Source of the DNA: an uncultured bacterium
Lineage (GTDB): Bacteria > Patescibacteriota > Dojkabacteria > J137
NCBI GenBank assembly: GCA_963700155.1
Contig: OY969472.1
Span: 744,690-808,689 of the forward strand
Direction: 5' to 3'
Length of the DNA stretch: 64,000 nt
Position numbers and translations under genes: made by a program. Shown piece by piece: positions 5,988 through 62,590 of this stretch. The notes below the pieces were generated by a model. It made no database searches and had not been told where the DNA came from. It saw only the letters and a list, made by a program, of their open reading frames with translations. Numbering within the stretch: position 1 is the stretch's first letter; each line of letters begins with the position of its first letter.

Positions 5988-5992
5988 GATTT

Positions 5993-6763: not shown

Positions 6764-6780
6764 ATTATATTTAAATTTAA

Positions 6781-7533: not shown

Positions 7534-7616
7534 AATTTAAATGATTAAATTTATGTCATGATTATACAATTATTCTGGAAATTATTAGAAAATAAATAAA
7601 AAGTTTAAGAGTAATC

Positions 7617-25647: not shown

Positions 25648-26063
25648 TTTTCAAGATTGATATAAAGGTAAAATTAATATGTCACTCTAGATTATAAATT
25701 GAATATGGTTTTTATTAAAGTCTTAAGATTTGATAAGTAATATCCTTTTAAAATTGTTCATTTTCTTAATCAGTAAAATAGTTCTATATACTCAAAGTGA
25801 TTATTGGTATGTTATGTTTATGTATCCAAGGAGTATTAAGTTGTTTATCGTAAATGCTATTAAAAATCAATATAGAACATTAAAAATTGATTTTTTAGAT
25901 GTTATTAGTTACAATCATAATAGAGCCTACGCTATCCTCAAAGTTTGGCGACATAGCTAACTCAGGCTCATGTAGGCTTCATGTGAGGTAAAATTCTTGG
26001 GTTTTCTCACTTCCAAGATTGAACTCGCTCTTTAACATATCATTCGTAATTAAATATTGTTTT

Positions 26064-26108
26064 GGTCTCCTCTATTTGTATTTTTTTAAGTATACATAGA
26101 GGAGATCA
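26064..26108 (+). promoter_or_regulatory. 12-bp-stem hairpin (GGTCTCCTCTAT...ATAGAGGAGATC, one G-U) 22 nt upstream of the acquired GT2 gene; RBS GGGAGGG follows
   Basis: I read the inverted repeat directly. It lies at the AT-rich to GC-rich transition. Confidence 0.3.
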
Positions 26109-26129
26109 AAACATTAGGGAGGGAATCCA

Positions 26130-27329: not shown

Positions 27330-27358
27330 ATGTTCGATAACAGGGAGGTATAACTACC

Positions 27359-27733
27359 ATGAACTACGATCCACCTTTCTTGCCGGTAACCGGAGCAGCT
27401 TTTGCCACTGGTGCTGGCGCATACTTACAATGGACGTGGCCAGTGATCCTGGCTGCGGCTGTTGTGTCGTTTGTAATTCTCGCATTTGGGATGATGCTCT
27501 TGCGACGGAATGAAAGCCGGCTGCTCAAATCCGGTGTCAAGGTTCGTCGCAGTACCCTCCCATACATGATCGGCGGAGTCATCGGCATTGTCGTGGGTAT
27601 CGTCGGCGCGGCGCTTGAATTACCCGCACTTTTCGTGATCCCAGCTATCCTGGTCTCGGTGATCCTCGTCGCGGCGCTGCTTGGGGGCTTTCGCAGCAAT
27701 TTCCCTAAACAGCAGCTCGCCCAAGTCGAATGA
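27359..27733 (+). CDS. Small polytopic membrane protein (124 aa) co-transferred with the GT2 synthase
   Basis: It has several hydrophobic helices and is rich in Gly and Ala. It is GC-rich and is followed by a strong terminator. Confidence 0.5.
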   Translation: MNYDPPFLPVTGAAFATGAGAYLQWTWPVILAAAVVSFVILAFGMMLLRRNESRLLKSGVKVRRSTLPYMIGGVIGIVVGIVGAALELPALFVIPAILVSVILVAALLGGFRSNFPKQQLAQVE

Positions 27734-27743
27734 TGTGTTAGAA

Positions 27744-27773
27744 GGGGGCGGTCCGACGTGTCGGACCGCCCCC
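27744..27773 (+). terminator. GC-rich rho-independent terminator-like hairpin GGGGGCGGTCCGAC..GTCGGACCGCCCCC
   Basis: This is a perfect 14-bp arm (at most 12 bp paired with a real loop). It lies downstream of the 124-aa gene at the GC-to-AT boundary. Confidence 0.6.
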
Positions 27774-27843
27774 TAAAACTTTCTTTTATAAATTCAAAAA
27801 TTTCTACTCTACTATAATCTTGAAATAGGTCGAATATTTTTAT

Positions 27844-42700: not shown

Positions 42701-43750
42701 CTCCACAGAAGGGTTTAATACTTGATTTTCATCAGCAGTTGGTAATGTAACATGCAAAATTGAAAAATCATCAGTCCATAAATCTCCTACTCCATTTAAT
42801 ATATGTAATATAGTAACCTGATTAACATTATTAGGGACTGTAAAGTTATAGTTTACTTCTAACCAATCTGGATTTGCTGGTAGTGATTCAAGATATACAT
42901 ATTGGTGTGAGTTGTCATTTAACTGGTAATCTAAAAACAAAATTGTACTAGTTGTTGACTTATAAAAATCACTAAAATTATAAGTCTCACCTGGTGTAAC
43001 ATTAACTGGATCGTGATACCATTTTCCATCTCCATCAGTATAGCTTGTAGTTGAGACATGAAGACTTTTACTTCCAGTATGAGCATCATTTGAATACTCA
43101 AAAGTTGTACTATTGTTTCCCCAGTTACTTGTATGCCAGAATGCTGGATTTGTACCATTAGAAGTTTCTACCGATGGATTTAAAATTTGATTATCATTTG
43201 GACCAGGCAAAGTGGCTTGTACAATAGAGTAATCATCAGTCCAAAGATCCCCTACCCCAGCAATTAAATGCATCATAGTTACCTGTGTAGTATTTGAAGG
43301 TGCTGTAAAATTATAATTAGTACTTACCCAATCTGCACTTGCAGGTATATTAGCAATGAACTGGTACTGTTTTTCTCCATTAACAAGATAATATAAGTAC
43401 AATATAGTGTCAGTACTAGATTTGTAAAAATCAGAAAAAGTATATGTTTCACCTGGTGTAACAGTTACAAAATCATGTAACCATTCAGAATCACCACTTG
43501 TATAACTTGTTGTTGAAACATGTAAGCTTTTACTGCCAGTATGAGCATCATTAGAATACTCAAATGTTGAGGTATTTGTTCCCCAAGTATAGGTCTGCCA
43601 ATTTACTGGATCTCCGTTAACATCTTGAGTTTCAGCGGATGGGTTTTGAACAAGATTTTCACCTGCTGCATTAACTTTAATAGAGTTAGTCGAAGAAAAT
43701 AAAAGGAGAGTGAACGCTGCAACGATCAAAGTAAGTATTAATCGCTTCAT
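39719..43750 (-). CDS. Giant secreted protein: seven repeated CBM4/9/22-like beta-sandwich modules fused to a C-terminal CE4 (NodB) polysaccharide deacetylase domain
   Basis: It has a signal peptide and ~150-aa repeats of the form NPSVE..NG.NPA.W.T..WGTN...F.YSNDAHTG.KSLHVS.TSYTDGDAKW.HDPVNVTPGETY.F.DFYKS. The CE4 motifs are TFDDS, GSHSITHPDL and ATPFG. It is 1343 aa. Confidence 0.7.
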   Translation of the reverse strand: MKRLILTLIVAAFTLLLFSSTNSIKVNAAGENLVQNPSAETQDVNGDPVNWQTYTWGTNTSTFEYSNDAHTGSKSLHVSTTSYTSGDSEWLHDFVTVTPGETYTFSDFYKSSTDTILYLYYLVNGEKQYQFIANIPASADWVSTNYNFTAPSNTTQVTMMHLIAGVGDLWTDDYSIVQATLPGPNDNQILNPSVETSNGTNPAFWHTSNWGNNSTTFEYSNDAHTGSKSLHVSTTSYTDGDGKWYHDPVNVTPGETYNFSDFYKSTTSTILFLDYQLNDNSHQYVYLESLPANPDWLEVNYNFTVPNNVNQVTILHILNGVGDLWTDDFSILHVTLPTADENQVLNPSVEVPNGINPANWQTNTWGTNTHSFDYSNDAHTGTKSIHVSISSYTDGDAKWMHQPVNVTPGQIYKFNDFYKASRETLLFLEYAMNDGSFQYVYLSNPQASADWSQTNFNFLVPENVSTVRVLHILAGVGDLWTDDYSILHIAAPAPDENQILNPSAEAQDSSGNPIDWQTNTWGTNTPVFEYSNSPHTGSKSLHVSMTSYTDGDAKWYHSPAPVTPGETYRFSDYYRATTNTYVYIEFHMNDGSYQYTSLGMLTPSTDWTMTSYDFTAINNASTIRALHILPGLGDLWTDDYSLLHITPEPPPGPEDNQILNPSVENQNGISPAHWTSSSWGTNSAIFDYSNDAHSGNKSLHISMSSYTDGDAKWLHDAVSVTPGETYSFSNYYKSNTSTLIYLQYLMTDNSNQFIEIDSLSPSADWIESNFDYIVPENVSKVTVLHILNGVGDLWTDDYSILHKTVTPPDTGDNIVPNPSVETPNGNVPAFWQSSSYGNNTPDFQYLNEGQDGTRSIYINMTNYVSGDAKWFFDPVTVKSGSYYSYSNYYKSTVPTDTTVQLGHTDGSITYQWMGTNPASSDWIKSEYAFLVPSDVNNVTVLQFIGQNGELWTDNYDLFEIAPPTGSSTVPNGDLETEATSKRPLSWAPSSWGNNSAQFEYLKNQGQSGTHSVRLTVSNYVDGDAKWIHDPVVLTPGEDYLVTDYYKSDVDSRIVLEMNMQDNSIFYQELPEAPPAADWAHYAESFTMPANAVSVVIYHLLSQNGTLTTDNYDITPYTPVPFNRALLTLTFDDSWEDNVDTAIPMMDSYGFKADLFEATTFIQSNPDYTEQEAKDIIKSFEDDGYEIGSHSITHPDLRTLTPAEVETELVDSQTYLRSFLNGPINYFATPFGAYNQAVKDQIMQHYTVHRTVDAGFNSKDNFDVSRLKVQNILDNTTGEEVASWIAQAQREGTWLILVYHRVATDPDPYDTTPTLFTDHLNAMRDSGIPVVTISQALAELEPQL

Positions 43751-43946: not shown

Positions 43947-46661
43947 TTAAAGTTGAGGTTCTAACTCTGCTAAAGCTTGGCTAATTGTTACAACTTTAAT
44001 CCCACTATTATTTACAGCTGCCATTTGGTCTGCAAATTCAACTGGTGTTGTATCATAAGTTCCAGGATCAGTAGCTACTCTATGATAAACTAGTATTAAC
44101 CATGTGCCTTCTTGTTGAGCCTGGTTAATCCAGGCTGTTATATCTTCAGCCGTAGTATCACTAAATACGTTCTGAACTTTTAATTGACTTACATCAAAAT
44201 TATCTTTGCTATTAAATCCTACATTTACCGTTCTATGAACTGTATAAGTATGCATTATCTGATCTAATACTGATTGATTATATGATCCATATGGTGTTGC
44301 AAAATAATTTACTGATGTTCCAAGAATACTTTCAAGATAACTTTGAGAATCTACAAGTTCTGTTGTGACTTGTGCAGGTGTAAGTGTGGTTAAATCAGCA
44401 TGATCAACTGTGTGAGATCCAATTTCTTGCCCATCTGCAGCCATGTTCTGAACTCTTGTTACAGCATCAGGAAGATCTGAGTTTTGAATATTTGAAGTTA
44501 TAAAGAACCAGTTGCCTTTATATCCATATTGATCTAATACTGGAAATGCTGTGTCATAATTATCAAGCCATCCATCATCATCAAATGTTAAAGTTACTAA
44601 AGGTTCATTGAATGGCGTTGGAACATATTCTTCAACTTTATAATTATCAGTGATTAAGAATCCTGAACTTTGAAGAATATGAAGAATATTGATACTCATA
44701 GCATTTGCAGGCATTGTAAAAGTTCCAGTGAAAAGTACCCAATCTGTGCTTGGCGCTGCATTTCCTATATCAATGTAATTTACACTCCCATCTTGCATAT
44801 TTACAGCGATAGTAACTTTAGTTTCAACATCTGATTGGTAGTAATCCGAGATTTTATAGCTTACTCCTGGGGTCAAATTTATTGAGTCGTTAAACCATTT
44901 AGCGTCTCCATCGGTGTAGTTAGTAATTGTTGTTTTAACGCTATGAGTTCCATCATATCCTGTATTCAAATATTGAAATTTTGCATTGTTTGTTCCCCAA
45001 GAATTTGTATTCCAGAATTGTGGTTGATTTGGATTTGATGCTAATGTGTCTTCTAATGAAGCATTTGGTAAAAGTGACCCATCAGGTAGAATTTCTTTCA
45101 GGCTGTAATTATCAGTCCAAAGCTCTCCATTTTGTGCCATAACATGGAAAACAGTTAATTTTGTAGCACCTACAGGAGGCAAGAAACTATATTCAGATTT
45201 TGCCCAGTTTGCATTAATTGGATTTGTTCCTAACCAAAGGTAAGATAAAGAACCGTCTCCCATTTGAAATTGAACTACAGTTTCGCTTGGTGCAGTTGAT
45301 TTATAATAGTCAGAGAATAAATAATGTGAGTCATCTGAGATTGAAACAGGATCAAAATACCATTTAGCATCTCCATCAGTATAGTTAGTAACATTTACAT
45401 AAACGCTTTTTGATCCTTCTTGACCTTCGTTTAGATATTGAAATTGTGCTTTATTTGTTCCCCAAGAATTTGACTGCCAGAAAGCAGGGTCACTTCCATT
45501 TGGAGTTTCAACTGATGGATTAGCAACAGCATTTTCTCCAGGATCTGGAATAGGTGGCGGTTCTGGCGTTGTTACGAGTATGATTGAATAATCATCAGTC
45601 CAAAGATCTCCAACGCCAGCAATTAAATGGAATACAGTTACTTGTTTAGCATTTGTTGGTGCAGTAAAGTTATAATCTACTTGAGCCCAATCCGCACTTG
45701 ATCCTGGGCCTCCTAAATAAACATATTGATTAGAACCATCATTCATTAAGTACTGTAAAACTACCTCTGTATTTTCAGTTGATTTATAGTAATCAGTAAA
45801 ATTATATGTTTCGCCTGGAGTAACATTTACAGGATCGTGATACCATTTGGCATCCCCATCTGTATAACTAGTAGTTGTAACATGAACGCTTTTATTGCCT
45901 GTATGTGCTGAATTTGAATATTCAAATGTTGAAGTATTCGTCCCCCAAGCATTATTTTGCCAGTACGCTGGATTCCCATTAGAATCTGGGGTTTCTACTG
46001 ACGGATTTAAAATTTGATTTTCATCAACTGCTGGCGGAGTAACTGGTGGATCTACTACAGGCGGATCTACTACAGGTGGATCTACCACTGGTGGATCTAC
46101 TACAGGTGGTTCGGTAGGTGTTGTTGATGTAGTTTCAGTAAGTGAAAAGTTATCAGTCCAAAGCTGTCCAACTGAAGAGATTACATGAAAAATTGTTACT
46201 TGTGTAGAATTATCTGGAACTGTGAAGTTTGCAGTTATATTAGTCCAAGCTGAATTTGCTCCAACTGATGTTAAATATTCATATTGATATGAATTTGATC
46301 CAACTGTATATTGAGCAATAATGTCTGTACCTACATTTGATTTATATGAATCACTGAATTCATATGTTGTCCCTGCAGTTACATTTACTGGATCTGGATA
46401 CCATTTTGCATCTCCGTTTCCTTGTGCAGTAACTGTTACTCCTAATGCTTTTCCAATACTTCCATCTGTAGTAGAATAAGTGAAATCCGCAACTGTCCCT
46501 CCCCAAGACCCTGTATTAAAGTTTGCAGGTTGAGTATCCCCGGTTTCAACATCGGGATTAGGAATTAAGTTGTCTGCAGCACTTACTTTTAATGGACCTG
46601 ATAAAGTAAATAATATAATGCTTGAAGCTAATGAGACTAACAGAAGGTTTAATCGTTTCAT
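43947..46661 (-). CDS. Giant secreted paralog: CBM-like repeat modules, Pro-rich PPVVD linker, C-terminal CE4 (NodB) deacetylase
   Basis: It has a signal peptide, a (PPVVD)x4 linker, and the same repeat consensus as the 39719 gene. The CE4 motifs are TFDDD, GSHTVDHADL and ATPYG. It is 904 aa. Confidence 0.7.
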   Translation of the reverse strand: MKRLNLLLVSLASSIILFTLSGPLKVSAADNLIPNPDVETGDTQPANFNTGSWGGTVADFTYSTTDGSIGKALGVTVTAQGNGDAKWYPDPVNVTAGTTYEFSDSYKSNVGTDIIAQYTVGSNSYQYEYLTSVGANSAWTNITANFTVPDNSTQVTIFHVISSVGQLWTDNFSLTETTSTTPTEPPVVDPPVVDPPVVDPPVVDPPVTPPAVDENQILNPSVETPDSNGNPAYWQNNAWGTNTSTFEYSNSAHTGNKSVHVTTTSYTDGDAKWYHDPVNVTPGETYNFTDYYKSTENTEVVLQYLMNDGSNQYVYLGGPGSSADWAQVDYNFTAPTNAKQVTVFHLIAGVGDLWTDDYSIILVTTPEPPPIPDPGENAVANPSVETPNGSDPAFWQSNSWGTNKAQFQYLNEGQEGSKSVYVNVTNYTDGDAKWYFDPVSISDDSHYLFSDYYKSTAPSETVVQFQMGDGSLSYLWLGTNPINANWAKSEYSFLPPVGATKLTVFHVMAQNGELWTDNYSLKEILPDGSLLPNASLEDTLASNPNQPQFWNTNSWGTNNAKFQYLNTGYDGTHSVKTTITNYTDGDAKWFNDSINLTPGVSYKISDYYQSDVETKVTIAVNMQDGSVNYIDIGNAAPSTDWVLFTGTFTMPANAMSINILHILQSSGFLITDNYKVEEYVPTPFNEPLVTLTFDDDGWLDNYDTAFPVLDQYGYKGNWFFITSNIQNSDLPDAVTRVQNMAADGQEIGSHTVDHADLTTLTPAQVTTELVDSQSYLESILGTSVNYFATPYGSYNQSVLDQIMHTYTVHRTVNVGFNSKDNFDVSQLKVQNVFSDTTAEDITAWINQAQQEGTWLILVYHRVATDPGTYDTTPVEFADQMAAVNNSGIKVVTISQALAELEPQL

Positions 46662-49369: not shown

Positions 49370-50026
49370 TTATTCTTTTTCTATGAGTGTTTTTTTGTTT
49401 TCTTTAGAACTGTTCACTTCTTTACTTACCTTGTAAGAAACCATTTCTTTGGAAGGGTAAGGTTTGAGCATACTTTTTAAAGTGTCGAGATCTTTAATTT
49501 CTGAATTCAGCCAGACTTCTTCGAACTTTTTAGGTAAAATAACAGGCATTCGATCATGAACTTGCTTTACTAAACTATTTGCCGCACAAGTAATGATTGT
49601 AAAAGTTCTTATGTTTGCTCCTTTTTCATTCTTCCAATCATCATAAATACCTGCAAAAGAGAAAATATCTCTGTCCTTCAATCTAAATAAGTAAGGTTGT
49701 CTACTCTTTCCTTCTTTTGCCCATTCATAAAAGAAACTTGCAGGAATCAAACATCTTTTATTAAATAAACTGAGTCTATAAGAAGGTTTTGTTTCTATTT
49801 CCTCTGCTCTAGCATTTATCATTTTAAAACCAATCTTTGAATCCTTTGCCCAATGCGGAATAAATCCCCACTGCATAAATTCAAGATCAATTTTATCTTT
49901 CATAATTACAACAGGAACTTTCTTTGAAGGCGCAATGTTATAGTCATCTTGAACAAGTAAATCTATTGGCAGATTATAATATTTACTTAAACCATTTTCT
50001 GTTACTAATCCGAATCGTCCGCACAT
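49370..50026 (-). CDS. yedK: SOS response-associated peptidase (SRAP/YedK family, abasic-site DNA-protein crosslink protein)
   Basis: It starts with the invariant MCGRF. It is 218 aa. Confidence 0.8.
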   Translation of the reverse strand: MCGRFGLVTENGLSKYYNLPIDLLVQDDYNIAPSKKVPVVIMKDKIDLEFMQWGFIPHWAKDSKIGFKMINARAEEIETKPSYRLSLFNKRCLIPASFFYEWAKEGKSRQPYLFRLKDRDIFSFAGIYDDWKNEKGANIRTFTIITCAANSLVKQVHDRMPVILPKKFEEVWLNSEIKDLDTLKSMLKPYPSKEMVSYKVSKEVNSSKENKKTLIEKE

Positions 50027-50063
50027 ATTAAAAATTTTTATATAATTTATTTTAACATTTCAT

Positions 50064-51371
50064 TTAGATCTTTATTTTTAACAATTCCTGCCAGCTTGTT
50101 GTAAATCTCTGAGATTTTCTTTCTTGTTTCATCATCCAATTTTTTCTCATCCCCTGACTACCCATCTTTATAGTATTACTTCCCCACTTTAAATTAATCT
50201 TATCAAAAACATTCATTATTTTAGTTTCCCGCTTATCTATTGCTTCTTCTAAAATTGGACTAGTAAATAAATGTAATTGTTTGTGACTCTGTGGCTCTAT
50301 TCCAGATAACATTACTCCTGCCCTTTTAAACTTATATCCATCTTTAAAAATAGTTTTTAAACCATGCAAAGCAGCTTTAGTTAGTGTCGGTAAATATGAG
50401 CTTGGCGGATCAAGTTCAAGTGTTATTGAATTATAATATTGAGGATCTTTTTGATTAAAAAGACTTGTATGAATAAATATTGTTACTAATTTTGCTAAGG
50501 AGTTTTGTTCTCTGAGTTTTTCACTTGCGATTGATACATAAAGTGAAATAGCTTCAATTAAGTCTGCTATTTTGGTGACGGGGATTCCGAATGATCTTGT
50601 ACTTGCAATAATTTTTTTAGGTTCTGGTGCATTATCTATTGGAATACAGGAAATACCATGTAATTCCAAGTATGTTCTTTCTCCTTGAACTGTCATTTTT
50701 TTTCTTACGACATATCTATTAAAATACTTAAAATCTTTTGCAGTATATATTCCATTCATTCTTAAAAATTTAGTGTATTGACGTCCAACACCCCAAATAT
50801 CTTCAACATCTACTTTCTTAAGATAATCATCAATATTATTAATTTCAAATTCATTCAGTACACCATTGAATTCAGGAGTTTTTTTTACAATTTTATTCAA
50901 AGCCTTTGCTAAAGTTTTTGTTGATGCAATTCCGATTGAAATTGGAATACCTGTGCTCTGAAATACTTTCTCTCTTATTTTTCTACAATATTCTGTAAGA
51001 TTATTTATCTTAAGGTTTGTGAAGTTTAGGAAGGCTTCATCTATAGAATAAAGTTCTATATCGGGTGTGAACTCGTTTAAAATTCCCATTACACGCATTG
51101 AGAGATCTGCATACAAAGTGAAGTTAGATGAATAAACAAATACCATTCCGCTATTGATAAGATTTTTGAGTTCGAAAAAAGGCTGACCCATTTTGATTCC
51201 TAATTTTTTAGCTTCGTTTGATCTTGCAATTACACATCCGTCATTATTTGAAAGAACAATAACAGGTTTCCCATTGAGTTTGGGGTTAAAAAGCCTTTCA
51301 CATGAGGCGTAAAAATTGTTGCAGTCAACAATAGCGAATATTTTTTTCTTTGAATAATTTGAGAGGTCCAT
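50064..51371 (-). CDS. Y-family translesion DNA polymerase (DinB/UmuC-like)
   Basis: The N-terminus reads IFAIVDCNNFYASCERLFNPKLNGKPVIVLSNNDGCVIARSNEAKKLGIKMGQP. It is 435 aa. Confidence 0.8.
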   Translation of the reverse strand: MDLSNYSKKKIFAIVDCNNFYASCERLFNPKLNGKPVIVLSNNDGCVIARSNEAKKLGIKMGQPFFELKNLINSGMVFVYSSNFTLYADLSMRVMGILNEFTPDIELYSIDEAFLNFTNLKINNLTEYCRKIREKVFQSTGIPISIGIASTKTLAKALNKIVKKTPEFNGVLNEFEINNIDDYLKKVDVEDIWGVGRQYTKFLRMNGIYTAKDFKYFNRYVVRKKMTVQGERTYLELHGISCIPIDNAPEPKKIIASTRSFGIPVTKIADLIEAISLYVSIASEKLREQNSLAKLVTIFIHTSLFNQKDPQYYNSITLELDPPSSYLPTLTKAALHGLKTIFKDGYKFKRAGVMLSGIEPQSHKQLHLFTSPILEEAIDKRETKIMNVFDKINLKWGSNTIKMGSQGMRKNWMMKQERKSQRFTTSWQELLKIKI

Positions 51372-54763: not shown

Positions 54764-54861
54764 CTCTCATTTTTAACCGATTGATATTATTATATCATGA
54801 ATATATAAGGTATAGCTACACTCCAATCGAGGGTTGTAATTATTCTCGGTACTAATAAAAG

Positions 54862-54934
54862 TGCCAGGGGGCAGACTCGGACTGCCGACACCTCGCTCTT
54901 CAGGCGAGTGCTCTACCAGCTGAGCTACCCTAGC
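54862..54934 (-). tRNA. tRNA-Phe (anticodon GAA) with atypical T-loop (T54-C55-C56)
   Basis: I folded the cloverleaf by hand. The acceptor is GCTAGGG/CCCTGGC (one G-U), the anticodon loop is CTGAAGA, and the T-arm is GGCAG-TCCGAGT-CTGCC. No CCA is encoded. Confidence 0.65.
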
Positions 54935-55468: not shown

Positions 55469-56191
55469 ATGTTCTTTATGATTTCTGCTGAAAAACTGAA
55501 CGAAATACAAAAATTATTAAAACGCGACTATCCTATAGTACAAACTCCTTTGTATCATACAACAGTTTTTCAGCTTCTTGTAGCTACAATGTTATCAGCT
55601 CAAACTCTTGATGCAACTGTAAATACAGTAACTCCAACTCTTTTTGAAAATTTTCCAACAGCAAAAATAATGTCTAAAGCAGATGTTAAAGACGTTGATA
55701 AAATTATTAACAAATTGAATTATCATAATACAAAAGCTAAAAATATTGTTGCGATGTCAAATGGAATACTTAAAGATTTTAAAGGAGTTATTCCATATAC
55801 AATTGAAGATTTAACAAAACTTCCAGGTGTGGGAAGGAAAACTGCAAATGTAGTTATCGCTGAATGGTATGCTAGGAGATTGAAAGACAGGGGCCACCCG
55901 TGGCCGGGTGGCCCCAAAACCAAATTCTTTATGAATGGTGATGAAAGATTAACGATGGCTGAAGGATTTGTAGTTGATACACATGTTATTCGAGTCTCAA
56001 ATAGATTAGGACTAACAAAGAATAAGGATCCTAAAAAGATAGAGCAAGATTTAATGAAGATTTTTCCTCAAGAAGAATGGACCGATATAAGTTTAAGAAT
56101 GATTTTCCATGGCAGAAACAGATGTAAAGCTAGGCAAAATTTATGTTGTGAAGATAAAGATTGGAAAAAACTATGTTTAGAATGTAAATAA
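55469..56191 (+). CDS. nth: Endonuclease III (Nth, HhH-GPD glycosylase with 4Fe-4S Cys cluster) carrying a ~25-aa GC-rich insertion
   Basis: It has the HhH motif LPGVGRKTANVV, VDTHVIRVSNR, and the C-terminal CxxxxxxCCxxxxxxxxCxxC cluster. The insertion KDRGHPWPGGPKTKFF is encoded by the palindrome GGGGCCACC..GGTGGCCCC. Confidence 0.8.
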   Translation: MFFMISAEKLNEIQKLLKRDYPIVQTPLYHTTVFQLLVATMLSAQTLDATVNTVTPTLFENFPTAKIMSKADVKDVDKIINKLNYHNTKAKNIVAMSNGILKDFKGVIPYTIEDLTKLPGVGRKTANVVIAEWYARRLKDRGHPWPGGPKTKFFMNGDERLTMAEGFVVDTHVIRVSNRLGLTKNKDPKKIEQDLMKIFPQEEWTDISLRMIFHGRNRCKARQNLCCEDKDWKKLCLECK

Positions 56192-56197
56192 TACTAG

Positions 56198-57364
56198 TTA
56201 CTGTTGTAATTCTTCAATTATCATATTGAGATAATCAAAAGATTCTTCTTTCAATTTCAAGTGCTCTTTATCGAATATATCCATTTCTTCAATTATCTTT
56301 CTGAATTCTACTATGGTATGCAATGCTTGTTGGATGTCTTCAGATGAAATAAATTCATTACCCCTGAATTTTCTTATTTCTTTAATCCTTTTAATAATTA
56401 AAACACATAATTTTTGAATTTCTTGATAAACCATAGACATAAAATCACTCGTTTCAGATTTTGTAATTATTTTATTTATATTAAGATGAATTACAATTTT
56501 CTTTTTACCATTTACTATTATTTCTTTGTAGCCGAAGTCATTTAAAGAAAGATTTTCATACACGAAATTTCTGTGGAGTAACGCAATATCTCTGAGTAAC
56601 ACAGTAAACACACTCTCATTTTCGCCATTATTTGTATTGAATAGATTATTGTCAATTGAAAGTAGTTTTATATTCCTTTCAAGTACTGAAAATATATATA
56701 CTTTATCGCGGCTATCGACTGCATGAGTTGTTAATCTAGAAAGTGTGTTTAATCCAATTTTATTTAAGCTCTCGGTTATTGAAATTTCGCGAGCTGCAGC
56801 TTGTTCATTTGTATAAGTCTTGTAATAAATTACTACATAAAAAGGGACCTTATTTTCTCGAATGTTTTCTATATCATAGTATGTAACTTCTGGACTATCA
56901 AAAATATAGTCTATCTCAGCTGGTGATATCATCTTCTCGGAAAATCCTCGAACACTTTGAAGAAGTTTTAAAAATTGTTCCTTTGTAAATCTAAGTTTAA
57001 AATGAGGATCTTCTTCCCTGTATATAATATCTAAAATAACCTTTAATCTGTCTGCAATTTTTTTTCTTTTTGCATTTAGAATCTCTAATGCGAGTCTTTG
57101 AGAATTAGAGATTCTTAAAAGATTTGTTTGAATTTGTTCTGAATTATTCGAATTATAATATCCGGACACTCTAAGTAACCCTACTTCTTTGGCAAAATTT
57201 ATCTGCGAAGTAAGTCTATTCTCTATTGGAGCTATACTAATAGAAAGAGTTGTATTCCCAAGTACTGAAGCAAGTTGTGTTTTTAAAAAATCTATTGAAA
57301 CTTCAGTTGGATTATCACCTTCAATATGTACCTGACTCGAATCAGGAAGATTAGGTTGATTCAT
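56198..57364 (-). CDS. Hypothetical protein (388 aa)
   Basis: This is an ORF with no recognisable motif. It is the first of six consecutive unknowns. Confidence 0.5.
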   Translation of the reverse strand: MNQPNLPDSSQVHIEGDNPTEVSIDFLKTQLASVLGNTTLSISIAPIENRLTSQINFAKEVGLLRVSGYYNSNNSEQIQTNLLRISNSQRLALEILNAKRKKIADRLKVILDIIYREEDPHFKLRFTKEQFLKLLQSVRGFSEKMISPAEIDYIFDSPEVTYYDIENIRENKVPFYVVIYYKTYTNEQAAAREISITESLNKIGLNTLSRLTTHAVDSRDKVYIFSVLERNIKLLSIDNNLFNTNNGENESVFTVLLRDIALLHRNFVYENLSLNDFGYKEIIVNGKKKIVIHLNINKIITKSETSDFMSMVYQEIQKLCVLIIKRIKEIRKFRGNEFISSEDIQQALHTIVEFRKIIEEMDIFDKEHLKLKEESFDYLNMIIEELQQ

Positions 57365-57379
57365 ACTCTAATTCTATGT

Positions 57380-57739
57380 TTACTCTATTATTAAAAATCT
57401 TTGATTATCATAACTAGTATTTCTTGAAACTGCAATTCTGTTGGCTAATTCTTTATTAGTTTTTAATAATTGAGCAAGAGCATCAGGTATTACAACTTCA
57501 GATGCTATAAGAGCTTCTTCGTTTGTCATTTTCTTTTGTTCTGCTTGAAATTCACTTTCAGATAAATATCCTTCTTCAAGGCAAGTATAGTGACCTAATG
57601 CCATATACTCATCAAAATCCTCAGGACTTACGGATGTAAAATGATCTGCTCCTATAATTCCTAAAATATTTTCTTTTAATTCTTGGTCCAATTCATTTAC
57701 TTCACTTACATTTTCTTGGAAAGTTGGCATTGCTACCAT
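57380..57739 (-). CDS. Hypothetical acidic protein (119 aa)
   Basis: The ORF lies 15 nt from its neighbour. Confidence 0.45.
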   Translation of the reverse strand: MVAMPTFQENVSEVNELDQELKENILGIIGADHFTSVSPEDFDEYMALGHYTCLEEGYLSESEFQAEQKKMTNEEALIASEVVIPDALAQLLKTNKELANRIAVSRNTSYDNQRFLIIE

Positions 57740-57908
57740 AATTGTTATTTTAATAATTTATATAACTCTATTTATAGTATAGAGATATATAATTTTAGCT
57801 CAAAAATAACAAATTTTCCAGTCAGTTTTTATTGACAGCCTACATTAACTTTTAATATGTGTAATGAAATTCGATGTCTATATCTTTTGTCAAATACTTT
57901 GGCGCAAC

Positions 57909-59228
57909 TTAAAGTTCCGTTTCTAAGGTAGTTAAATTCCTATCAAAAATCGATCTTAATTCTTTTAAAAGTTCTCCATAAGTTTTATTTCCTTTTACAA
58001 ATCTTCTATAAGGACTAACTTCGATCGAAATATCTGGATCAACTTTAAGATTTCTAACTAAGTTTTCTAGTGTATTACAATACCAGTTGACTATAATTTT
58101 ACAATTTATTCTTTCTTCTGTAGTAAATAAGTTAACATCATAAATAGATTTTATAATCTCTATGATATCGCTGATATCTCTCATTAAATTTTTAAAATAT
58201 CTTGCAATCTCGTTATTATCCTCTTCATTAAATTCAGCTAATTTGTCAGCATTAACAAATCTTATTCTTGCATTCTCTGGTTCTTGATCATCGTAACTTT
58301 CAAAACTTAAGGTTGAATAATCAAATATTGTTCCGAGGGAAATCCTTTCTTGCAATAATTTCTCAGCATAAATCATGAATTTGGCAAAAAGACTATTATT
58401 AAATGGATAATTCCATATTGCAGGATTTTCTTCGGCAATCTGATAAAAATTTCGCTTAATATTAAAGTACTTGTAAATCAGTTCACTTGGTCTTGGTGGT
58501 ATTCTGACTGATAAATTACCAGAATCTGAATCTTGTGGATTTATGACACTTAAAGTATCAAATCCTTTAGATTCAAGATATTGAGCTTTTGTATAAACAT
58601 CAACAGCATCTTCTTGACTATCATGCGATTCAAATAAAAGTTCTACTGGAATGATCATACTACCACTAAGAAGTACAGCAATTTTTTCTTTAAAATCATT
58701 TAAAGAAATTGATTCATCAAACATTGCTGCAACATCACTAGAAGGTATTTTTATATTTCTCCCCTCAGGTAATTTTGATAGATATTCAGTTAATCTTGTA
58801 TAGATTTCTATCCAATCAGGTTTTCCTTCGACTTTGTCATAAAAGGCGCCCATGGTTTCAGCAGTAATATTATTTTTTATTAAGAATCTTCTCAAATATA
58901 ACTGAAGCATCATTTTTTTTCTAAAATGAGTCAGTATTTCAACTTTAGAACTAGTTAGATGAACTCCAAACTTTGATTCAAGATAATCAATATAAATATC
59001 AATATCTTCAATATCATTTATATTATTTATTATGACTGAAAAATTCTCTTGAAAAACTTCAGGAATTCCTGATTGATTATATTTGAAAGCTCTTTCAACA
59101 GATTGCCCCCTAAATACTTCTAGTCCAATCAAATCCATTATTTTATATGCTGTTTCTCTAATTCTATCTAATCTTCTCTTCCCTGTTTCGTGTTGAAAAG
59201 GATCACCAGATGGTAAGTATAAACTCAT
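57909..59228 (-). CDS. Hypothetical protein (439 aa)
   Basis: This is an ORF with no recognisable motif. Confidence 0.5.
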   Translation of the reverse strand: MSLYLPSGDPFQHETGKRRLDRIRETAYKIMDLIGLEVFRGQSVERAFKYNQSGIPEVFQENFSVIINNINDIEDIDIYIDYLESKFGVHLTSSKVEILTHFRKKMMLQLYLRRFLIKNNITAETMGAFYDKVEGKPDWIEIYTRLTEYLSKLPEGRNIKIPSSDVAAMFDESISLNDFKEKIAVLLSGSMIIPVELLFESHDSQEDAVDVYTKAQYLESKGFDTLSVINPQDSDSGNLSVRIPPRPSELIYKYFNIKRNFYQIAEENPAIWNYPFNNSLFAKFMIYAEKLLQERISLGTIFDYSTLSFESYDDQEPENARIRFVNADKLAEFNEEDNNEIARYFKNLMRDISDIIEIIKSIYDVNLFTTEERINCKIIVNWYCNTLENLVRNLKVDPDISIEVSPYRRFVKGNKTYGELLKELRSIFDRNLTTLETEL

Positions 59229-59250
59229 AAATGTAGTTTAATGAATAATT

Positions 59251-59706
59251 CTATGCAGCTTGTTGTTCAGGCTTGGAAGCCGGTTCATTAGCTAACGGAG
59301 AAGAATATACCATAATTTGAATGGAGTTGTCACTTTGAGCAAAATATATTCCTTCTATAAAATGCAATCCTTCTGAAGTAGCAAGGAAATTCTTCACTTC
59401 TTCAAAGGCTTCTAGGATTGTATCTTCAGTTATTTCTTTTGTAGCTAAAATTAAGCATATTAATGAAATTAAATTTGCATCTAATTGAGGATCTAAAACC
59501 TCTTTTGCTCTAAATTGAGTTGCAGGAAGATAAATATCTTCATTCGGAGGAACTTGAGATTCTCTAATTCTAGAGATTTCAAATGCATTACCATACCCTA
59601 ATTTATTTACAATTTGGGAATATTTATCCAAATCTACTTTGGTTAAATTATCTGATAATTTATAACTACTAGTATCTATTTGTTCAAAAGTGTTTGGTAT
59701 TTGCAT
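59251..59706 (-). CDS. Hypothetical protein (151 aa)
   Basis: The ORF lies 22 nt from the upstream gene. Confidence 0.45.
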   Translation of the reverse strand: MQIPNTFEQIDTSSYKLSDNLTKVDLDKYSQIVNKLGYGNAFEISRIRESQVPPNEDIYLPATQFRAKEVLDPQLDANLISLICLILATKEITEDTILEAFEEVKNFLATSEGLHFIEGIYFAQSDNSIQIMVYSSPLANEPASKPEQQAA

Positions 59707-59859
59707 ATGGATTATAGTAAGAATTAAATATCTACTATTAATAGATATACTTAATTTTAACTTGAATTAATAAAATTGCCAACCAAAAAATTCTGACATA
59801 TATTTTAATCTGATTTGTAGGTAAAGTTAGAAGCTTTCGGTTGGATTGACAAGTAAAAT

Positions 59860-60291
59860 TTATACTCGCTGATCACCTATCATGTTTTTTCGAAGCTCTA
59901 CATAGAAGTCTTTTGGCTTAGCTGCTCCTTTATATAAGTAGTCAAAATATACTTCTTTTAAAATTTGTATGTGCCAATCAACTATTTCCATACTGAAAAA
60001 ATCTTCCGGCTGCATTTCAAGCAATTGATGAAATATGTACTCAAGATTAAAAATAGGATTTATCGGATTAAAACCATTCAAATTAAGCCATAACATAAAT
60101 TCAATATCATCAATAAAATTAAGCGTTGAAGGAAAATTATTTTTAATCCACAATATAACCCGATCTTTAAAATATTTATCTGAAGAGTACCATAAATAGT
60201 CTTCCGGATTTAAAGATTCTGGAATTGCTGACCGCAAAACAGCATCAAGAAGTTCTGTTTGTCTCAAATCATTCATGTGGTTATATGACAA
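59860..60291 (-). CDS. Hypothetical protein (143 aa), paralog of the next gene (shared NGFNPINPIFNL motif)
   Basis: WL.LNGFNPINPIFNLEYIF here matches WLIDNEFHPGNPTFNLLDIY in the 60337 gene. Confidence 0.45.
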   Translation of the reverse strand: MSYNHMNDLRQTELLDAVLRSAIPESLNPEDYLWYSSDKYFKDRVILWIKNNFPSTLNFIDDIEFMLWLNLNGFNPINPIFNLEYIFHQLLEMQPEDFFSMEIVDWHIQILKEVYFDYLYKGAAKPKDFYVELRKNMIGDQRV

Positions 60292-60336
60292 TTTTAGATT
60301 TCTTAGTTAACAAAGAATTTCTAATCTTTTCAGATA

Positions 60337-60633
60337 TTAATATTCCACAAGATTAGAATCTAAGTTGTATATATCTAAAAGATTAAAGGTTGGATTCCCT
60401 GGATGAAATTCATTGTCTATGAGCCAGTCTATCAGCGCTCCGCCCCATTCTTCCCATTCTCGCCAGTTTTTATTACTATAGTCTCCCTCATATTCGAATC
60501 CGTTAGCTATCCATTTGAACACAAACAACTTAAATTCCGGATCTGGTTCTGACCATTTGTAGTCGGATGGATCAAATGAGTTTGGAATCCAAAAGTACTT
60601 TTTAAAATTCTCTGTTAACTTTGCTTCAGTCAT
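60337..60633 (-). CDS. Hypothetical Trp-rich protein (98 aa), paralog of previous gene
   Basis: It shares the motif noted for the 59860 gene. Confidence 0.45.
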   Translation of the reverse strand: MTEAKLTENFKKYFWIPNSFDPSDYKWSEPDPEFKLFVFKWIANGFEYEGDYSNKNWREWEEWGGALIDWLIDNEFHPGNPTFNLLDIYNLDSNLVEY

Positions 60634-60668: not shown

Positions 60669-61928
60669 ATGAAATTAAGATTTAGCAATATGGAATTTAA
60701 ACTAAATTCAAAATTTAAACCATCTGGAGACCAGCCTCAAGCAATTGAATACCTTACCGCTGGGCTTGAGGCTGGTCTCAGACATCAAACATTAATCGGA
60801 GCTACAGGAACGGGAAAAACTTTTACAATGGCTAATATTATTCAGAATACAGGAAGGCCTGCTCTCGTTTTGTCCCACAACAAAACGCTCGCAGCTCAAT
60901 TGTACGCAGAGTTCAAAGAGTTTTTCCCGGAAAATGCAGTTGAATATTTTGTAAGTTACTACGATTATTATCAGCCTGAAGCTTATGTTCCTCAAAGAGA
61001 CTTATATATTGAGAAAGATTCAGATATTAACGAAGTTGTTGAAAAGTTTAGAAATAGCGCAACTCAGGAGTTGCTTTCAAGAAGAGATGTTGTAATTGTG
61101 GCAACTGTAAGTTGTATTTATGGACTTGGCGATCCTGAAGACTACTCAGCTCTTAGTCTACAGCTTAAGGTTGGTAAAGAATATAGCCGAGAAAAAATTA
61201 TGGTCAGATTAAGAGATATGCAATACGATAGAAATGATTCAGATTTTGCAAATGGAACTTTTAGGTTTAGAGGTGAATATATTGATATTAATCTAACAAC
61301 AGCTGATGATAGAGCTGTTAGGCTTTCATTTTTTGGAGATGAACTTGAATCAATAAGAATTTTGAATCCAATAAGTGGAGAAATTATTGGTGAACAAGAT
61401 GAAATTCAGATCTTTCCTGCAAAGCATTATGTAAGTTCTCAGGAAAAAATTAACAATGCCTTGAAAGTTATTCGTGAAGATCTAGAAGTTGAAGTTAAGG
61501 ATTTTATGGATAAAGGAAAAATGATTGAAGGTACAAGATTAAAGCAGCGTGTAAATTATGATTTAGAAATGCTTCAGGAAACAGGCTTTTGTAAAGGAAT
61601 TGAGAATTATTCAAGATATATTGATAATCGGGGAGTTGGTACAGCTCCTTCTACTCTTTTAGATTATTTCCCTGATGATTACCTAATGTTTATTGATGAA
61701 TCACACATTACTGTTCCCCAAATTGGAGGAATGTATCTTGGTGATTTATCTAGGAAACAAAACTTGGTTGACTATGGATTCAGAATGAAATCAGCTTTAG
61801 ATAATAGACCTCTAAAATTTGATGAGTTCCAGAAAAGAACGAATCAGATTATCTATACTACTGCGACACCAAGAGAATACGAAATTGAAAACTCAAAAAA
61901 ATCTGCAAAAGAAGTTTTAGGAAAATAA
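60669..61928 (+). CDS. uvrB: UvrB N-terminal portion (419 aa; ends exactly where helicase domain 3 should begin) - truncated gene / probable pseudogene
   Basis: It has Walker A GATGTGKT, YDYYQPEAY and the beta-hairpin region, ending ...IIYTTATPREYEIENSKK*. No domain-3 sequence appears in any downstream frame. Confidence 0.6.
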   Translation: MKLRFSNMEFKLNSKFKPSGDQPQAIEYLTAGLEAGLRHQTLIGATGTGKTFTMANIIQNTGRPALVLSHNKTLAAQLYAEFKEFFPENAVEYFVSYYDYYQPEAYVPQRDLYIEKDSDINEVVEKFRNSATQELLSRRDVVIVATVSCIYGLGDPEDYSALSLQLKVGKEYSREKIMVRLRDMQYDRNDSDFANGTFRFRGEYIDINLTTADDRAVRLSFFGDELESIRILNPISGEIIGEQDEIQIFPAKHYVSSQEKINNALKVIREDLEVEVKDFMDKGKMIEGTRLKQRVNYDLEMLQETGFCKGIENYSRYIDNRGVGTAPSTLLDYFPDDYLMFIDESHITVPQIGGMYLGDLSRKQNLVDYGFRMKSALDNRPLKFDEFQKRTNQIIYTTATPREYEIENSKKSAKEVLGK

Positions 61929-61929
61929 T

Positions 61930-62256
61930 TTATAACTCATCTATTCGAATCATATCTTCAGGAAGATCAACGCTAGCTTGGAAATACCTCATTTGATTAT
62001 GATCTAATGTAATCGAATCGGTATCTATTAATATTACAATTGAAGTAAATAGATTATTTGTTCCAGAATTATTTTTTAGGATGAGCATTACAGAATTAGA
62101 ATTTAGAAACGAGTAACCATATGGAGAATGCCTTGTTAATTTTAATCGCTCCAAGACTAAATTAAATAACTTTTTTACAGAAACATTAGATTCCTCAGTG
62201 ATTTCTAAAAGAGGTTCATTAATAGGTTCGTTAAATTGTTTAGGGAAATTAAACAT
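61930..62256 (-). CDS. Hypothetical protein (108 aa) at the uvrB/pilD breakpoint
   Basis: This is an ORF only. Confidence 0.3.
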   Translation of the reverse strand: MFNFPKQFNEPINEPLLEITEESNVSVKKLFNLVLERLKLTRHSPYGYSFLNSNSVMLILKNNSGTNNLFTSIVILIDTDSITLDHNQMRYFQASVDLPEDMIRIDEL

Positions 62257-62281: not shown

Positions 62282-62590
62282 TTAAATCAGCTTCTGAATA
62301 ATTATTGTGTAGATAATCAGGGCGAAAATTCCAAAAGTAGCTTCAATCAGCCAATATTTCAAGGGAATTTTCGCCCTGCAGTTAGAGCATTTTCCACCTA
62401 AAATTATAAAACTAACAACTGGAATGTTTTCATACCATTTCAAAACATGACTACAATGGGTGCAGTGTGAAGATGGCTTTAATATTGATTCACCTTTTGG
62501 AATTCTGTCGATAAGTACTCCAAAAAAGCTTCCAAATGAAGCCCCTAGAAAAAAAGATAATAATCCTAAAAATATTAATCCTAATGTCAT
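62282..62590 (-). CDS. pilD: Type IV prepilin peptidase N-terminal fragment (TM1, Zn-binding CxxC..CxxC domain, TM2) lacking the A24 catalytic domain
   Basis: It has HCTHCSHVLKWYENIPVVSFIILGGKCSNCRAKIPLKYWLIE, typical of the PilD N-domain. It stops at 102 aa, before the catalytic Asp motifs. Confidence 0.5.
   Translation of the reverse strand: MTLGLIFLGLLSFFLGASFGSFFGVLIDRIPKGESILKPSSHCTHCSHVLKWYENIPVVSFIILGGKCSNCRAKIPLKYWLIEATFGIFALIIYTIIIQKLI

Follow-up and report, generated by a model that had tools for sequence, protein, structure and literature searches.

A fast-evolving, lineage-restricted gene cluster beside nth and a short uvrB encodes a predicted protein-kinase-like family

In the HipBA and HipBST systems, a small gene lies immediately upstream of the gene for a kinase-fold protein of ~400-440 aa. 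The cluster described here likewise places a small gene directly upstream of a predicted kinase-like protein of ~400-440 aa, but it matches neither HipA_N nor HipA_C and lacks an HTH antitoxin, its chromosomal position is conserved, and the copy in our window (the whole 64,000-nt stretch of DNA that was analyzed) appears to have lost its catalytic residues. The Bud32/RIO/Kdo-kinase group (KdkA, WaaP; PF06293, TIGR03724) is matched by the family of one cluster protein, P1, over alphaC through the catalytic loop and over the DFG region. Unlike that group, the P1 family is limited to one lineage, scores far below the curated cut-offs, adds ~170-200 N-terminal residues and a helical C-terminal tail, and is accompanied by neither a Kae1/TsaD partner nor an LPS context, whether in the window or at the relatives' loci. 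Among the kinase anti-phage proteins in PADLOC, PD-T4-6 shares a generic catalytic-loop likeness (E = 0.028) with the 408-aa P1-like protein of a relative (L083_408); however, this match is non-significant and spans ~34 residues, the window proteins are unmatched, and there are no defense-island neighbors. With its predicted kinase-like core and substituted catalytic Asp residues, P1 would also resemble bacterial pseudokinases, a general likeness that implies no specific family relationship.

The six ORFs (Table 1) have the sizes (388, 119, 439, 151, 143 and 98 aa) and the tight spacing of 15-170 nt given in the initial annotation, with measured gaps from P1 to P6 of 15, 169, 22, 153 and 45 nt. 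All are real coding genes. Scored against 23 Pfam-annotated window genes (0.23-0.50 per codon), their codon log-likelihood is 0.23-0.48 per codon in the annotated frame and negative in the other five, which agrees with the native composition ascribed to them earlier. The GC3 of P6 is unusual (0.37, against 0.21 +/- 0.03 in known genes). All six proteins are acidic (pI 4.3-5.9), and their 19-residue hydropathy maximum does not exceed 1.7, so none has a clear membrane helix, again as first described.

Table 1. Positions of the cluster genes, their larger intergenic gaps and the flanking genes in the window
Feature	Position	Strand	Description
nth (endonuclease III)	55469..56191	+	Pfam HhH-GPD 8.5e-25; convergent with P1
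P1	56198..57364	-	388 aa
P2	57380..57739	-	119 aa; pI 4.3; 15 nt upstream of P1
Gap P2/P3	57740..57908	-	169 nt intergenic
P3	57909..59228	-	439 aa
P4	59251..59706	-	151 aa; acidic; 22 nt upstream of P3
Gap P4/P5	59707..59859	-	153 nt intergenic
P5	59860..60276	-	138 aa from ATG (143 aa from TTG at 60291); P6 paralog
P6	60337..60633	-	98 aa; Trp-rich; acidic; P5 paralog
Short UvrB	60669..61928	+	419 aa; divergent from P6

No match that was significant or at a curated cut-off was found for any of P1-P6 in Pfam, NCBIfam, PHROGs or PADLOC, the best being a PADLOC match at E = 0.018. A PDB sequence search gave no significant match for P1, P2, P3, P4 or a P5/P6 profile, and among 5.8 billion protein clusters P1, P3 and the P5/P6 profile matched only themselves. 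Five of the six proteins are singleton 90% clusters in the public protein collection, from which the 143-aa form of P5 is absent, its 138-aa form being a single-member entry. For P2, P5 and P6, no counterpart could be detected, either at the relatives' loci or anywhere else searched. The original statement that the cluster has no recognizable homology stands for direct database matches, but P1 can be placed in the protein-kinase-like superfamily, as described below. Pfam-less ORFs are common in the window (13 of the 40 other ORFs scanned, including four consecutive ones at 5247-8342), so several unannotated genes in succession are nothing exceptional for it. The cluster is confined to a single, sparsely sampled lineage with small genomes and low GC, which appears to be CPR/Patescibacteria-like.

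Relatives were found with an exhaustive HMMER (phmmer) search of 1.84 billion representative proteins. P3 retrieved only two remote homologs, P0009 (E = 4.6e-23) and P0010 (E = 1.2e-7), at ~25% identity, giving a family of three members, and a custom nth DNA pattern led to two further relatives. In L083, a short uvrB is followed by a P3-like gene, ORFans up to a P1-like gene, and nth, with a cluster of four genes (400, 137, 124 and 408 aa). The L082 cluster has two genes (162 and 432 aa) that directly abut nth, with no adjacent uvrB. In L106, the P1-like gene is accompanied by an ORF of 121 aa and a P-loop NTPase, and in L139 nth directly follows uvrB with no cluster genes between them. Physical linkage of the cluster to nth is seen in four lineages, and to the short uvrB in two. 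The homologs of P1, P3 and P4 are not scattered but share this locus in independent relatives, adjoining nth, the short uvrB or both, and we therefore regard it as a genuine conserved and undescribed cluster. Sequence comparison shows P1, P3 and P4 to be both orthologous and syntenic with their counterparts there. The six genes do not travel as a block, since P2, P5 and P6 are missing elsewhere and gene number varies; what had been proposed as an undescribed multi-gene system is not a single six-gene system.

The flanking genes are far better conserved than the cluster. Between the window and L083, identity is 78% for uvrB and ~60% for nth, but 21-24% for P3 and ~20% for P1; at ~20-25% identity, the P1 and P3 homologs still align over their full length as intact ORFs. 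The two loci have uvrB, the cluster and nth in common as one block and share nothing in the rest of their flanks, which are rearranged between relatives. Two near-identical relatives differ by only two SNPs within the cluster, both non-synonymous. The window nth, which anchors the conserved locus, is 57-61% identical to those of L082, L083, L106 and L139, and all of them, the window copy included, share a lineage-specific insertion. UvrB aligns with the N-terminal part of the NCBIfam UvrB profile (positions 1-405 of 653, E = 2.9e-192). Although it was initially called truncated, the lineage retains UvrB in this short form: the 412-aa L083 gene ends at the same terminal residue, and L139 carries a 415-aa ORF. 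The divergent start codons of P6 and uvrB are 35 nt apart. At a distance of 5-6 kb from the cluster are genes for SRAP and for a UmuC-like polymerase.

P1 is predicted to consist of ~170 N-terminal residues, a divergent protein-kinase-like core at ~170-345 and a helical tail. A profile built from L083_408 and the partial L106 protein found P1 among 138 window ORFs (E = 1.6e-5), and the top three matches of P1 among 111 ORFs of relatives were the P1-like and P3-like proteins. Against PDB, the profile gave 57 matches (best E 0.0027), essentially all of them protein kinases, including one named arginine kinase, in register on the catalytic loop. Aligning P1 with CDK2 by hhalign (P = 0.0026) set 'AAREIS' on 'AIREIS', which holds the alphaC Glu, and 'FVYENLSLNDF' on 'VLHRDLKPQNL' of the catalytic loop. 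In NCBIfam, L083_408 matched Bud32 (8.1e-6), Kae1/Bud32 (1.9e-5) and Kdo kinase (3.7e-5) and the L106 fragment matched Bud32 (7.6e-4), while the relatives' P1-type proteins matched Pfam Kdo at 6.4e-3 and 8.3e-4; all these scores lie far below the curated cut-offs (Bud32, 25 bits versus 125; Kdo, 16-19 versus 21.3). Profile comparison places the P1 family among protein-kinase-like domains of the Bud32/Kdo-kinase type, an assignment that is transitive for P1 itself, through relatives at 19-22% identity.

L083_408 keeps the HxD...N residues and the downstream metal-binding Asp ('ILHNDLRALNIG' and 'VILID') of the Bud32/RIO/Kdo-kinase group. In the window P1, the catalytic-loop positions read Y-E-N-L-S-L-N-D: Asn stands in for the catalytic base and Asp for the loop Asn, while the DFG Asp is replaced by His. 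Because of these three replacements, P1 is probably a pseudokinase. It retains the alphaC 'REIS' Glu and the 'G-(L/V)-N-T' turn; assignment of the beta3-Lys is ambiguous. The low-confidence AlphaFold2 (AF2) model of P1 (pLDDT 37.6) has a helix at 249-266, a loop and a beta hairpin at 277-294, an order that fits entry into a kinase C-lobe. The earlier finding of no catalytic motif is correct by direct inspection, but with relatives included P1 appears as a degenerate kinase-like protein.

In the orthology tests against all window ORFs, P3 scored E = 6e-38. The first match of the P3-family profile outside the family is P1 (E = 0.021); hhalign aligns the two families in register over 161 columns (E = 0.0042), and cross matches between P1 and P3 ranked 2-4. 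The P3 family has no kinase match of its own in Pfam, NCBIfam or PDB, and the P1-family profile did not retrieve P3. AF2 with the three-sequence alignment gave a pLDDT of 57.3, and a Foldseek search of PDB with this model was uninformative. These matches suggest that P1 and P3 are homologous and that P3 is possibly a very degenerate P1 paralog over residues 187-367. P2 corresponds in position to an L083 gene of 124 aa, which lies 21 nt upstream of the P1-like one. P4 was the top phmmer match of the 162-aa L082 protein (L082_162) among all window ORFs (E = 0.0015; reciprocal E = 8.6e-4), which makes the gene for that protein, located 22 nt upstream of the P3-like one, its ortholog. The reported paralogy of P5 and P6 was borne out (BLASTP E = 5e-9, 40% identity over 70 aa), as was their common motif, whose form is N-(G/E)-F-(N/H)-P-x-N-P-x-F-N-L because P6 has NEF rather than NGF. 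The most likely start of P5 is the ATG at 60276, since the public 138-aa form begins there and aligns with Met1 of P6. The pair, found in the window's genome only, would have arisen by a strain-specific tandem duplication at the end nearest uvrB.

This arrangement suggests three two-gene units, P6-P5, P4-P3 and P2-P1, rather than a fixed six-gene machine. In the latter two, a small acidic protein (119-151 aa) is encoded 15-22 nt upstream of a ~400-aa protein, and this spacing suggests that each small protein pairs with its large neighbor. The 153-nt gap is probably the promoter region of P4-P3, as TTGGCA-17-TAAAAT at 59782-59754 matches the consensus at 10 of 12 positions, a consensus match only. 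Promoter-like hexamers in the 169-nt gap (57820-57792 and 57803-57776, minus strand) are no more than consistent with a putative promoter of P2-P1, because such sites did not exceed shuffle expectation across the scan.

With middling confidence, we favor a native, vertically inherited and very fast-evolving cluster, restricted to this lineage and built around the kinase-like P1 and probably P3; its conserved position could nevertheless be due to descent alone, with no functional link. It is possible, though rather unlikely, that the genes form no functional unit and that a variable spot gathers and decays unrelated, lineage-specific orphans, with synteny reflecting inherited order. About a third of the window's other genes lack a Pfam match, the number of genes at the locus differs in every relative, P2, P5 and P6 stand alone, P1 appears catalytically degenerate, and both SNPs noted above are non-synonymous. 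Such a spot fits poorly with the block kept in the window and L083 while the other flanks are unshared, and with fully native codon usage; the persistence of P1 and P3 as full-length, intact ORFs argues for selection.

We consider it improbable that the locus is a small defense island of two HipBA-type kinase toxin-antitoxin or abortive-infection modules with P5 and P6 as extra immunity-like genes. The twice-repeated order of a small ORF 15-22 nt ahead of a ~400-440 aa protein with a kinase-like fold, the rapid evolution and variable gene content, the P-loop NTPase at the L106 locus and the PD-T4-6 likeness would suit it. Yet no member matches HipA_C, HipA_N or an HTH even at E <= 1, no DNA-binding signature is evident in the small, acidic proteins, and P1 lacks the catalytic Asp required of a toxin kinase. 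The position beside housekeeping genes, with relatives' nth ~57-61% identical, points to vertical descent. The six window proteins have no PADLOC match at E < 0.01, neither they nor their relatives have a significant one, and PADLOC matches below 1e-3 came solely from the P-loop region of the extra NTPase ORF in L106. Viral contigs contained no relatives of the cluster proteins, and the flanks show no repeats, integrase or compositional break. Nothing here supports the defense-cassette context suggested initially.

Less probable still is an accessory DNA-damage module in which the kinase-like proteins serve Nth and the atypical short UvrB as regulators or helpers, a role that would explain the retained linkage to both. 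The proximity of P6 and uvrB, the nearby SRAP and UmuC-like genes, and a UvrB without helicase domain 3 or the UvrC-binding tail throughout the lineage accord with it. Against it, L139 has uvrB and nth without the cluster, L082 has the cluster without an adjoining uvrB, P1-P6 have no nucleic-acid-binding or repair domain in Pfam, PADLOC, PHROGs or NCBIfam, and canonical LexA-box patterns are not enriched, with none in the divergent promoter. That the ORFs are spurious or pseudogene remnants deserves almost no credence despite the homolog-less P2, P5 and P6, given lengths of 388 and 439 codons in a genome of 30% GC, frame-specific native codon usage in all six, and protein-level conservation both within the P5/P6 pair and between P1, P3 and P4 and their relatives.

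Under the favored explanation, P1 and probably P3 would carry a Bud32/RIO/Kdo-kinase-type core behind an N-terminal domain that has no assigned fold. Because the L083 protein keeps its catalytic residues, the ancestral P1-type activity was most likely ATP-dependent phosphotransfer, which the window copy seems to have lost. In its present form, P1 is most likely a scaffold that binds nucleotides or a partner, presumably acting with the small acidic protein encoded next to it.

The six minus-strand ORFs between nth and a short uvrB gene, named P1 to P6 from the nth side, lie at exactly the coordinates at which the initial annotation had placed them, and all six are coding. A log-likelihood score of codon usage, calibrated on the 23 window genes with Pfam annotation, is 0.23-0.48 per codon when they are read in their annotated frame, compared to 0.23-0.50 for known genes, and falls below zero in all five of the other frames. 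Their products are acidic (pI 4.3-5.9) and have no convincing hydrophobic segment. The intergenic gaps from P1 to P6 measure 15, 169, 22, 153 and 45 nt, a spacing suggestive of three gene pairs, P6-P5, P4-P3 and P2-P1. The ATG at 60276 is the probable start of P5, yielding the 138-residue form found in the public protein collection, where it is a single-member entry and the 143-residue form is absent. The adjacent paralog pair proposed at the uvrB end is real, as P5 and P6 match with a BLASTP E-value of 5e-9 and 40% identity across 70 residues. P6 stands out by its GC3 (0.37; annotated window genes, 0.21 ± 0.03) as the sole compositional outlier within the cluster.

Features discussed in the text; positions refer to the window unless the contig of a relative (L083, L106, L139) is named
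Feature	Position	Strand	Length (aa)
Run of four consecutive ORFs without Pfam match	5247-8342	-	246, 256, 250, 241
Segment of raised GC content	26000-28000
Family-2 glycosyltransferase	26130-27329
Giant paralog, first	39719-43750	-	1343
Giant paralog, second	43947-46661	-	904
SRAP gene and UmuC-type polymerase gene	49370-51371	-
tRNA-Phe	54861-54934
nth, cluster flank	55469-56191	+
GC-rich palindrome in nth	55890-55915
P1	56198-57364	-	388
P2	57380-57739	-	119
P3	57909-59228	-	439
P4	59251-59706	-	151
P5	59860-60291	-	143
P6	60337-60633	-	98
Short uvrB, cluster flank	60669-61928	+	419
Inverted repeat in uvrB, two arms	60727-60742 / 60764-60779
ORFan abutting the uvrB 3' end	61930-62256	-	108
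Stand-alone A24_N ORF	62282-62590	-	102
Short uvrB, L083	8627-9865	-	412
Short uvrB, L139	2547-3794	-	415
P-loop NTPase, L106	1120-1626	+	168

Direct searches with the cluster proteins returned very little. Pfam, PADLOC, PHROGs and NCBIfam profile searches with all six gave no match that was significant or at a curated cut-off, and PDB sequence searches with P1, P2, P3, P4, a P5/P6 profile and a P3-family profile gave none that was significant. Five of the cluster proteins are present in the public collection, each as a singleton 90% cluster and all from a single contig of 1,140,724 bp, and a word-indexed search of 5.8 billion 90% clusters with P3, P1 and the P5/P6 profile recovered self matches only. 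When P3 was compared exhaustively by phmmer with 1.84 billion representatives, no more than two remote homologs emerged, P0009 (E = 4.6e-23, 432 aa) and P0010 (E = 1.2e-7, 400 aa), which are 21-24% identical to P3; the profile of this family had zero matches in the metagenome and viral collections scanned. A 2.4-kb Logan contig was 100% identical to the window and added zero variation. In a scan of 185,579 species genomes with nth, the source lineage was absent from the species representatives, the closest relatives were 44-46% identical and spread over phyla, and synteny was uninformative.

Such a lack of homology is not exceptional in the source genome. Annotated window genes include PilM/PilO, PBP1, MurA, RecG, MutL, RNase III and NusB. 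Among 40 window ORFs outside the cluster, 13 have no Pfam match, and four of these unmatched ORFs lie consecutively on one strand, the last two of them weakly alike (E = 4e-4). Runs of this kind are a feature of the genome. Its annotated genes, its 1.14-Mb contig and its GC content of ~30% would agree with an uncultivated bacterium that has a small genome and is perhaps CPR-like. One segment of the window instead has 45-47% GC and carries a glycosyltransferase gene, for which reasons it may have been horizontally acquired. Elsewhere, two adjacent giant paralogs are 44-50% identical and contain internal repeats; the larger carries a polysaccharide deacetylase domain, with glycosyltransferase and GH16 genes nearby.

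Contigs of relatives proved more telling. L106 and L139 came from JGI metagenomes, in which they were located by a DNA pattern encoding GFVVDTHV, an nth peptide specific to the lineage. The run of one relative belongs to metagenomes of wastewater and rivers in South Africa (PMC11984125). The locus shared by L083, L084 and L085 reads short uvrB, a divergent P3-like gene of 400 aa, genes of 137, 124 and 408 aa, and convergent nth. That of L082 consists of a prepilin peptidase gene, a 162-aa gene, a P3-like gene of 432 aa and convergent nth, while L106 has a partial P1-like ORF, a 121-aa ORF, a P-loop NTPase gene (AAA_18 or nucleotide-kinase-like) and nth. In L139, nth follows directly on uvrB, upstream of which the contig breaks off after 160 nt. 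Because L106 holds an extra NTPase and a 121-aa ORF between its P1-like gene and nth, the locus accepts new genes.

Unbiased searches against all 138 window ORFs confirm the orthology of P1, P3 and P4 with genes of the relatives. A profile built from the 408-residue L083 protein (L083_408) and the L106 fragment retrieved P1 (E = 1.6e-5), the 162-residue L082 protein retrieved P4 (E = 1.5e-3) and the relatives of P3 retrieved P3 (E = 6e-38). Reciprocally, the top three matches to P1 among 111 relative ORFs were L083_408, the P3-like L083_400 and the L106 fragment. We detected no counterparts of P2, P5 or P6 in the relatives' loci, and no hhalign match among the small proteins (P2, P4, the 137- and 124-residue L083 proteins and others) survives correction for 66 comparisons. 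The locus ranges from 0 to 4 genes in the relatives, and the conserved block of six genes envisaged in the initial annotation gives way to three recurring families, those of P3, P1 and P4. Between the window and L083, uvrB is 78% and nth ~60% identical, and P1 is ~20% identical to its positional counterpart. Outside uvrB and nth the flanks of the two have nothing in common, so the retained block is just uvrB, cluster and nth. A dN/dS comparison of two 99.8%-identical relatives had no power, with 2 SNPs within the cluster. In the flanks themselves, the window has a stand-alone prepilin-peptidase N-terminal domain ORF lacking the peptidase A24 domain, followed by an ORFan, whereas a 219-aa Peptidase_A24 gene adjoins the cluster in L082. 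A lineage-specific nth insertion (coding RGHPWPGGPK) contains a 26-nt GC-rich palindrome, unique in the window, with an 11-bp stem of which 10 pairs are G-C in this 30% GC genome.

The relatives also indicate what kind of protein P1 is. Against NCBIfam, L083_408 matched Bud32 (E = 8.1e-6), bifunctional Kae1/Bud32 (1.9e-5) and Kdo kinase (3.7e-5), and the L106 fragment matched Bud32 (7.6e-4); both had sub-threshold Pfam Kdo/WaaP matches over the same profile segment. In the PDB, phmmer with L083_408 found 8 sequences and hmmsearch with the P1-family profile found 57 (best E = 0.0027), essentially all of them protein kinases and aligned in register on the catalytic loop. An hhalign comparison of the family with CDK2 gave P = 0.0026 and placed P1 'AAREIS' on the CDK2 segment with the alphaC Glu ('AIREIS') and 'FVYENLSLNDF' on 'VLHRDLKPQNL'. 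For the beta3 Lys, P1 has a Lys 11 residues upstream ('VVIYYK') whose register is ambiguous in the HMMER alignment. The P1 family carries a core of the protein-kinase-like (PKL) superfamily, its profile similarity to the catalytic core of kinases being statistically supported, an assignment that holds for the family and not for P1 alone; P1 itself matched neither Bud32 nor Kdo profiles, and its single-sequence AF2 model was unusable (pLDDT 37.6). The view that the cluster has no recognisable homology therefore stands for direct searches of all six proteins and fails for the P1 family once relatives are included.

A P1-family relative scored 25.5 bits with Bud32 (TIGR03724), for which the cut-off is 125, and with Kdo kinase (PF06293) the scores reached 16.4 and 19.3 bits, short of the 21.3 required. 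Falling below these curated cut-offs, the P1 and P3 proteins are not members of the Bud32 or Kdo kinase families. They are best described as a putative, unannotated family of extremely narrow distribution that borders on the Bud32/RIO/Kdo-kinase group and lies inside the kinase-like superfamily.

Members of the P1 family differ in their catalytic residues. L083_408 has the full HxD...N and Asp set, with ILHNDLRALNIG as catalytic loop (H-N-D...N) and VILID as DFG-equivalent region, in which the metal-binding Asp is kept ('LIDPT'). The L106 fragment reads VHNELNLKNI (H-N-E...N) and FIGLS, with Gly in place of this Asp. P1 reads VYENLSLNDF (Y-E-N...D) and VIHLN: Asn stands in for the catalytic base, Asp for the catalytic-loop Asn and His for the DFG Asp. 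In kinases, substitutions at these three positions predict loss of conventional phosphotransfer, and we therefore predict this loss for P1, which is probably a pseudokinase. The ancestral P1-type activity was probably phosphotransfer.

A paralogous origin from the same gene as P1, followed by degeneration, is possible for P3. The two families align by hhalign at E = 0.0042 with 161 columns in register, share an '(A/T)xxLxxxG(F/L/V)(N/D)(T/P)' segment and place each other at ranks 2-4 in cross searches. The P3 family (P3, P0009 and P0010) had no kinase signal of its own in Pfam, NCBIfam or the PDB; its three-sequence AF2 model reached pLDDT 57.3, and Foldseek matches of this model in the PDB were meaningless (TM ~0.1).

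The neighboring uvrB, initially called truncated, is indeed short and is not an artefact; two relatives have the same short form. These proteins of 412-419 aa are 68-78% identical. The short UvrB covers profile positions 1-405 of 653, and its end directly follows the TATPREYE motif and coincides with the boundary to helicase domain 3; no C-terminal half occurs within the window. The pattern points to a UvrB that has been split or shortened lineage-wide. We rejected an alternative genetic code as the cause: the stop codon is TAA, table 11 leaves long ORFs intact, and relatives keep the end point. The 5' coding region of the window gene contains a perfect 16-bp inverted repeat (RNA fold -34.3 kcal/mol, z-score -6.3 vs shuffles), whose second arm is not kept in L083 or L139, making it specific to the source genome.

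Nothing but linkage suggests a DNA-repair accessory role for the cluster. L139, where uvrB and nth adjoin without a cluster, and L082, where no uvrB adjoins the cluster, weaken this reading, as does the lack of LexA-box enrichment in a scan for SOS regulation. In the same part of the window, a Y-family polymerase gene of UmuC type with DUF4113 has a gene for SRAP, an abasic-site sensor, directly downstream; with this pair, the stretch from 49 to 62 kb is rich in genes for DNA damage. The initial annotation had also suggested a defence cassette, and the kinase-like P1 family brings to mind a toxin-antitoxin system of HipBA-like architecture. Such a defence or toxin-antitoxin reading keeps a low probability and lacks positive evidence: HipA_C, HipA_N and HTH antitoxin domains had zero Pfam matches at E ≤ 1 among P1-P4 and the relatives, and the best PADLOC-DB 2.0 match of the six proteins was a methyltransferase model on P4 (E = 0.018), with none below 0.007 for the relatives' cluster proteins. 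Among the PADLOC matches listed, those below 1e-3 fell on the P-loop region of the extra L106 NTPase ORF. IMG/VR scans with P3, P1 and P5/P6 profiles found no viral relatives, and we found no mobility marks at the cluster, nor any intrinsic terminator, flanking repeat or compositional break marking the region. A mobile or phage-derived island is rejected on the native GC content and codon usage of the cluster, the missing direct repeats and these viral scans, and integration at a tRNA because tRNA-Phe points in the opposite direction from the cluster, which is not bracketed by repeats.

The region is best supported as a native, vertically inherited, fast-evolving modular cluster, not a fixed six-gene system. 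In each of two modules, a small acidic protein would be the partner of a kinase-like one of ~400 aa, and P5/P6 are a strain-specific tandem duplication. We consider it improbable that short UvrB, kinase-like cluster and Nth, retained as one block, act in DNA-damage signalling or as a repair accessory specific to the lineage, or form a hypervariable effector/immunity locus for an episymbiotic lifestyle. In a damage module, the kinase or pseudokinase and its small acidic partners would control or compensate a UvrB without helicase domain 3 and the UvrC-binding tail. Nothing about the cluster points to a new type of system, and its function is putative throughout.

The modular cluster contains a previously unannotated P1/P3 family, of which three P3-type and three P1-type sequences are detectable in the public collections searched. 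This family is related to the Bud32 and Kdo-type kinases, and catalytic residues are kept in some of its natural variants and lost in others. With ~20% identity in the cluster compared to 78% in the flanking uvrB, it illustrates how fast lineage-specific proteins diverge in uncultivated bacteria with small genomes. Finally, a lineage-wide short UvrB would bear on the mechanism of nucleotide excision repair in the host lineage.
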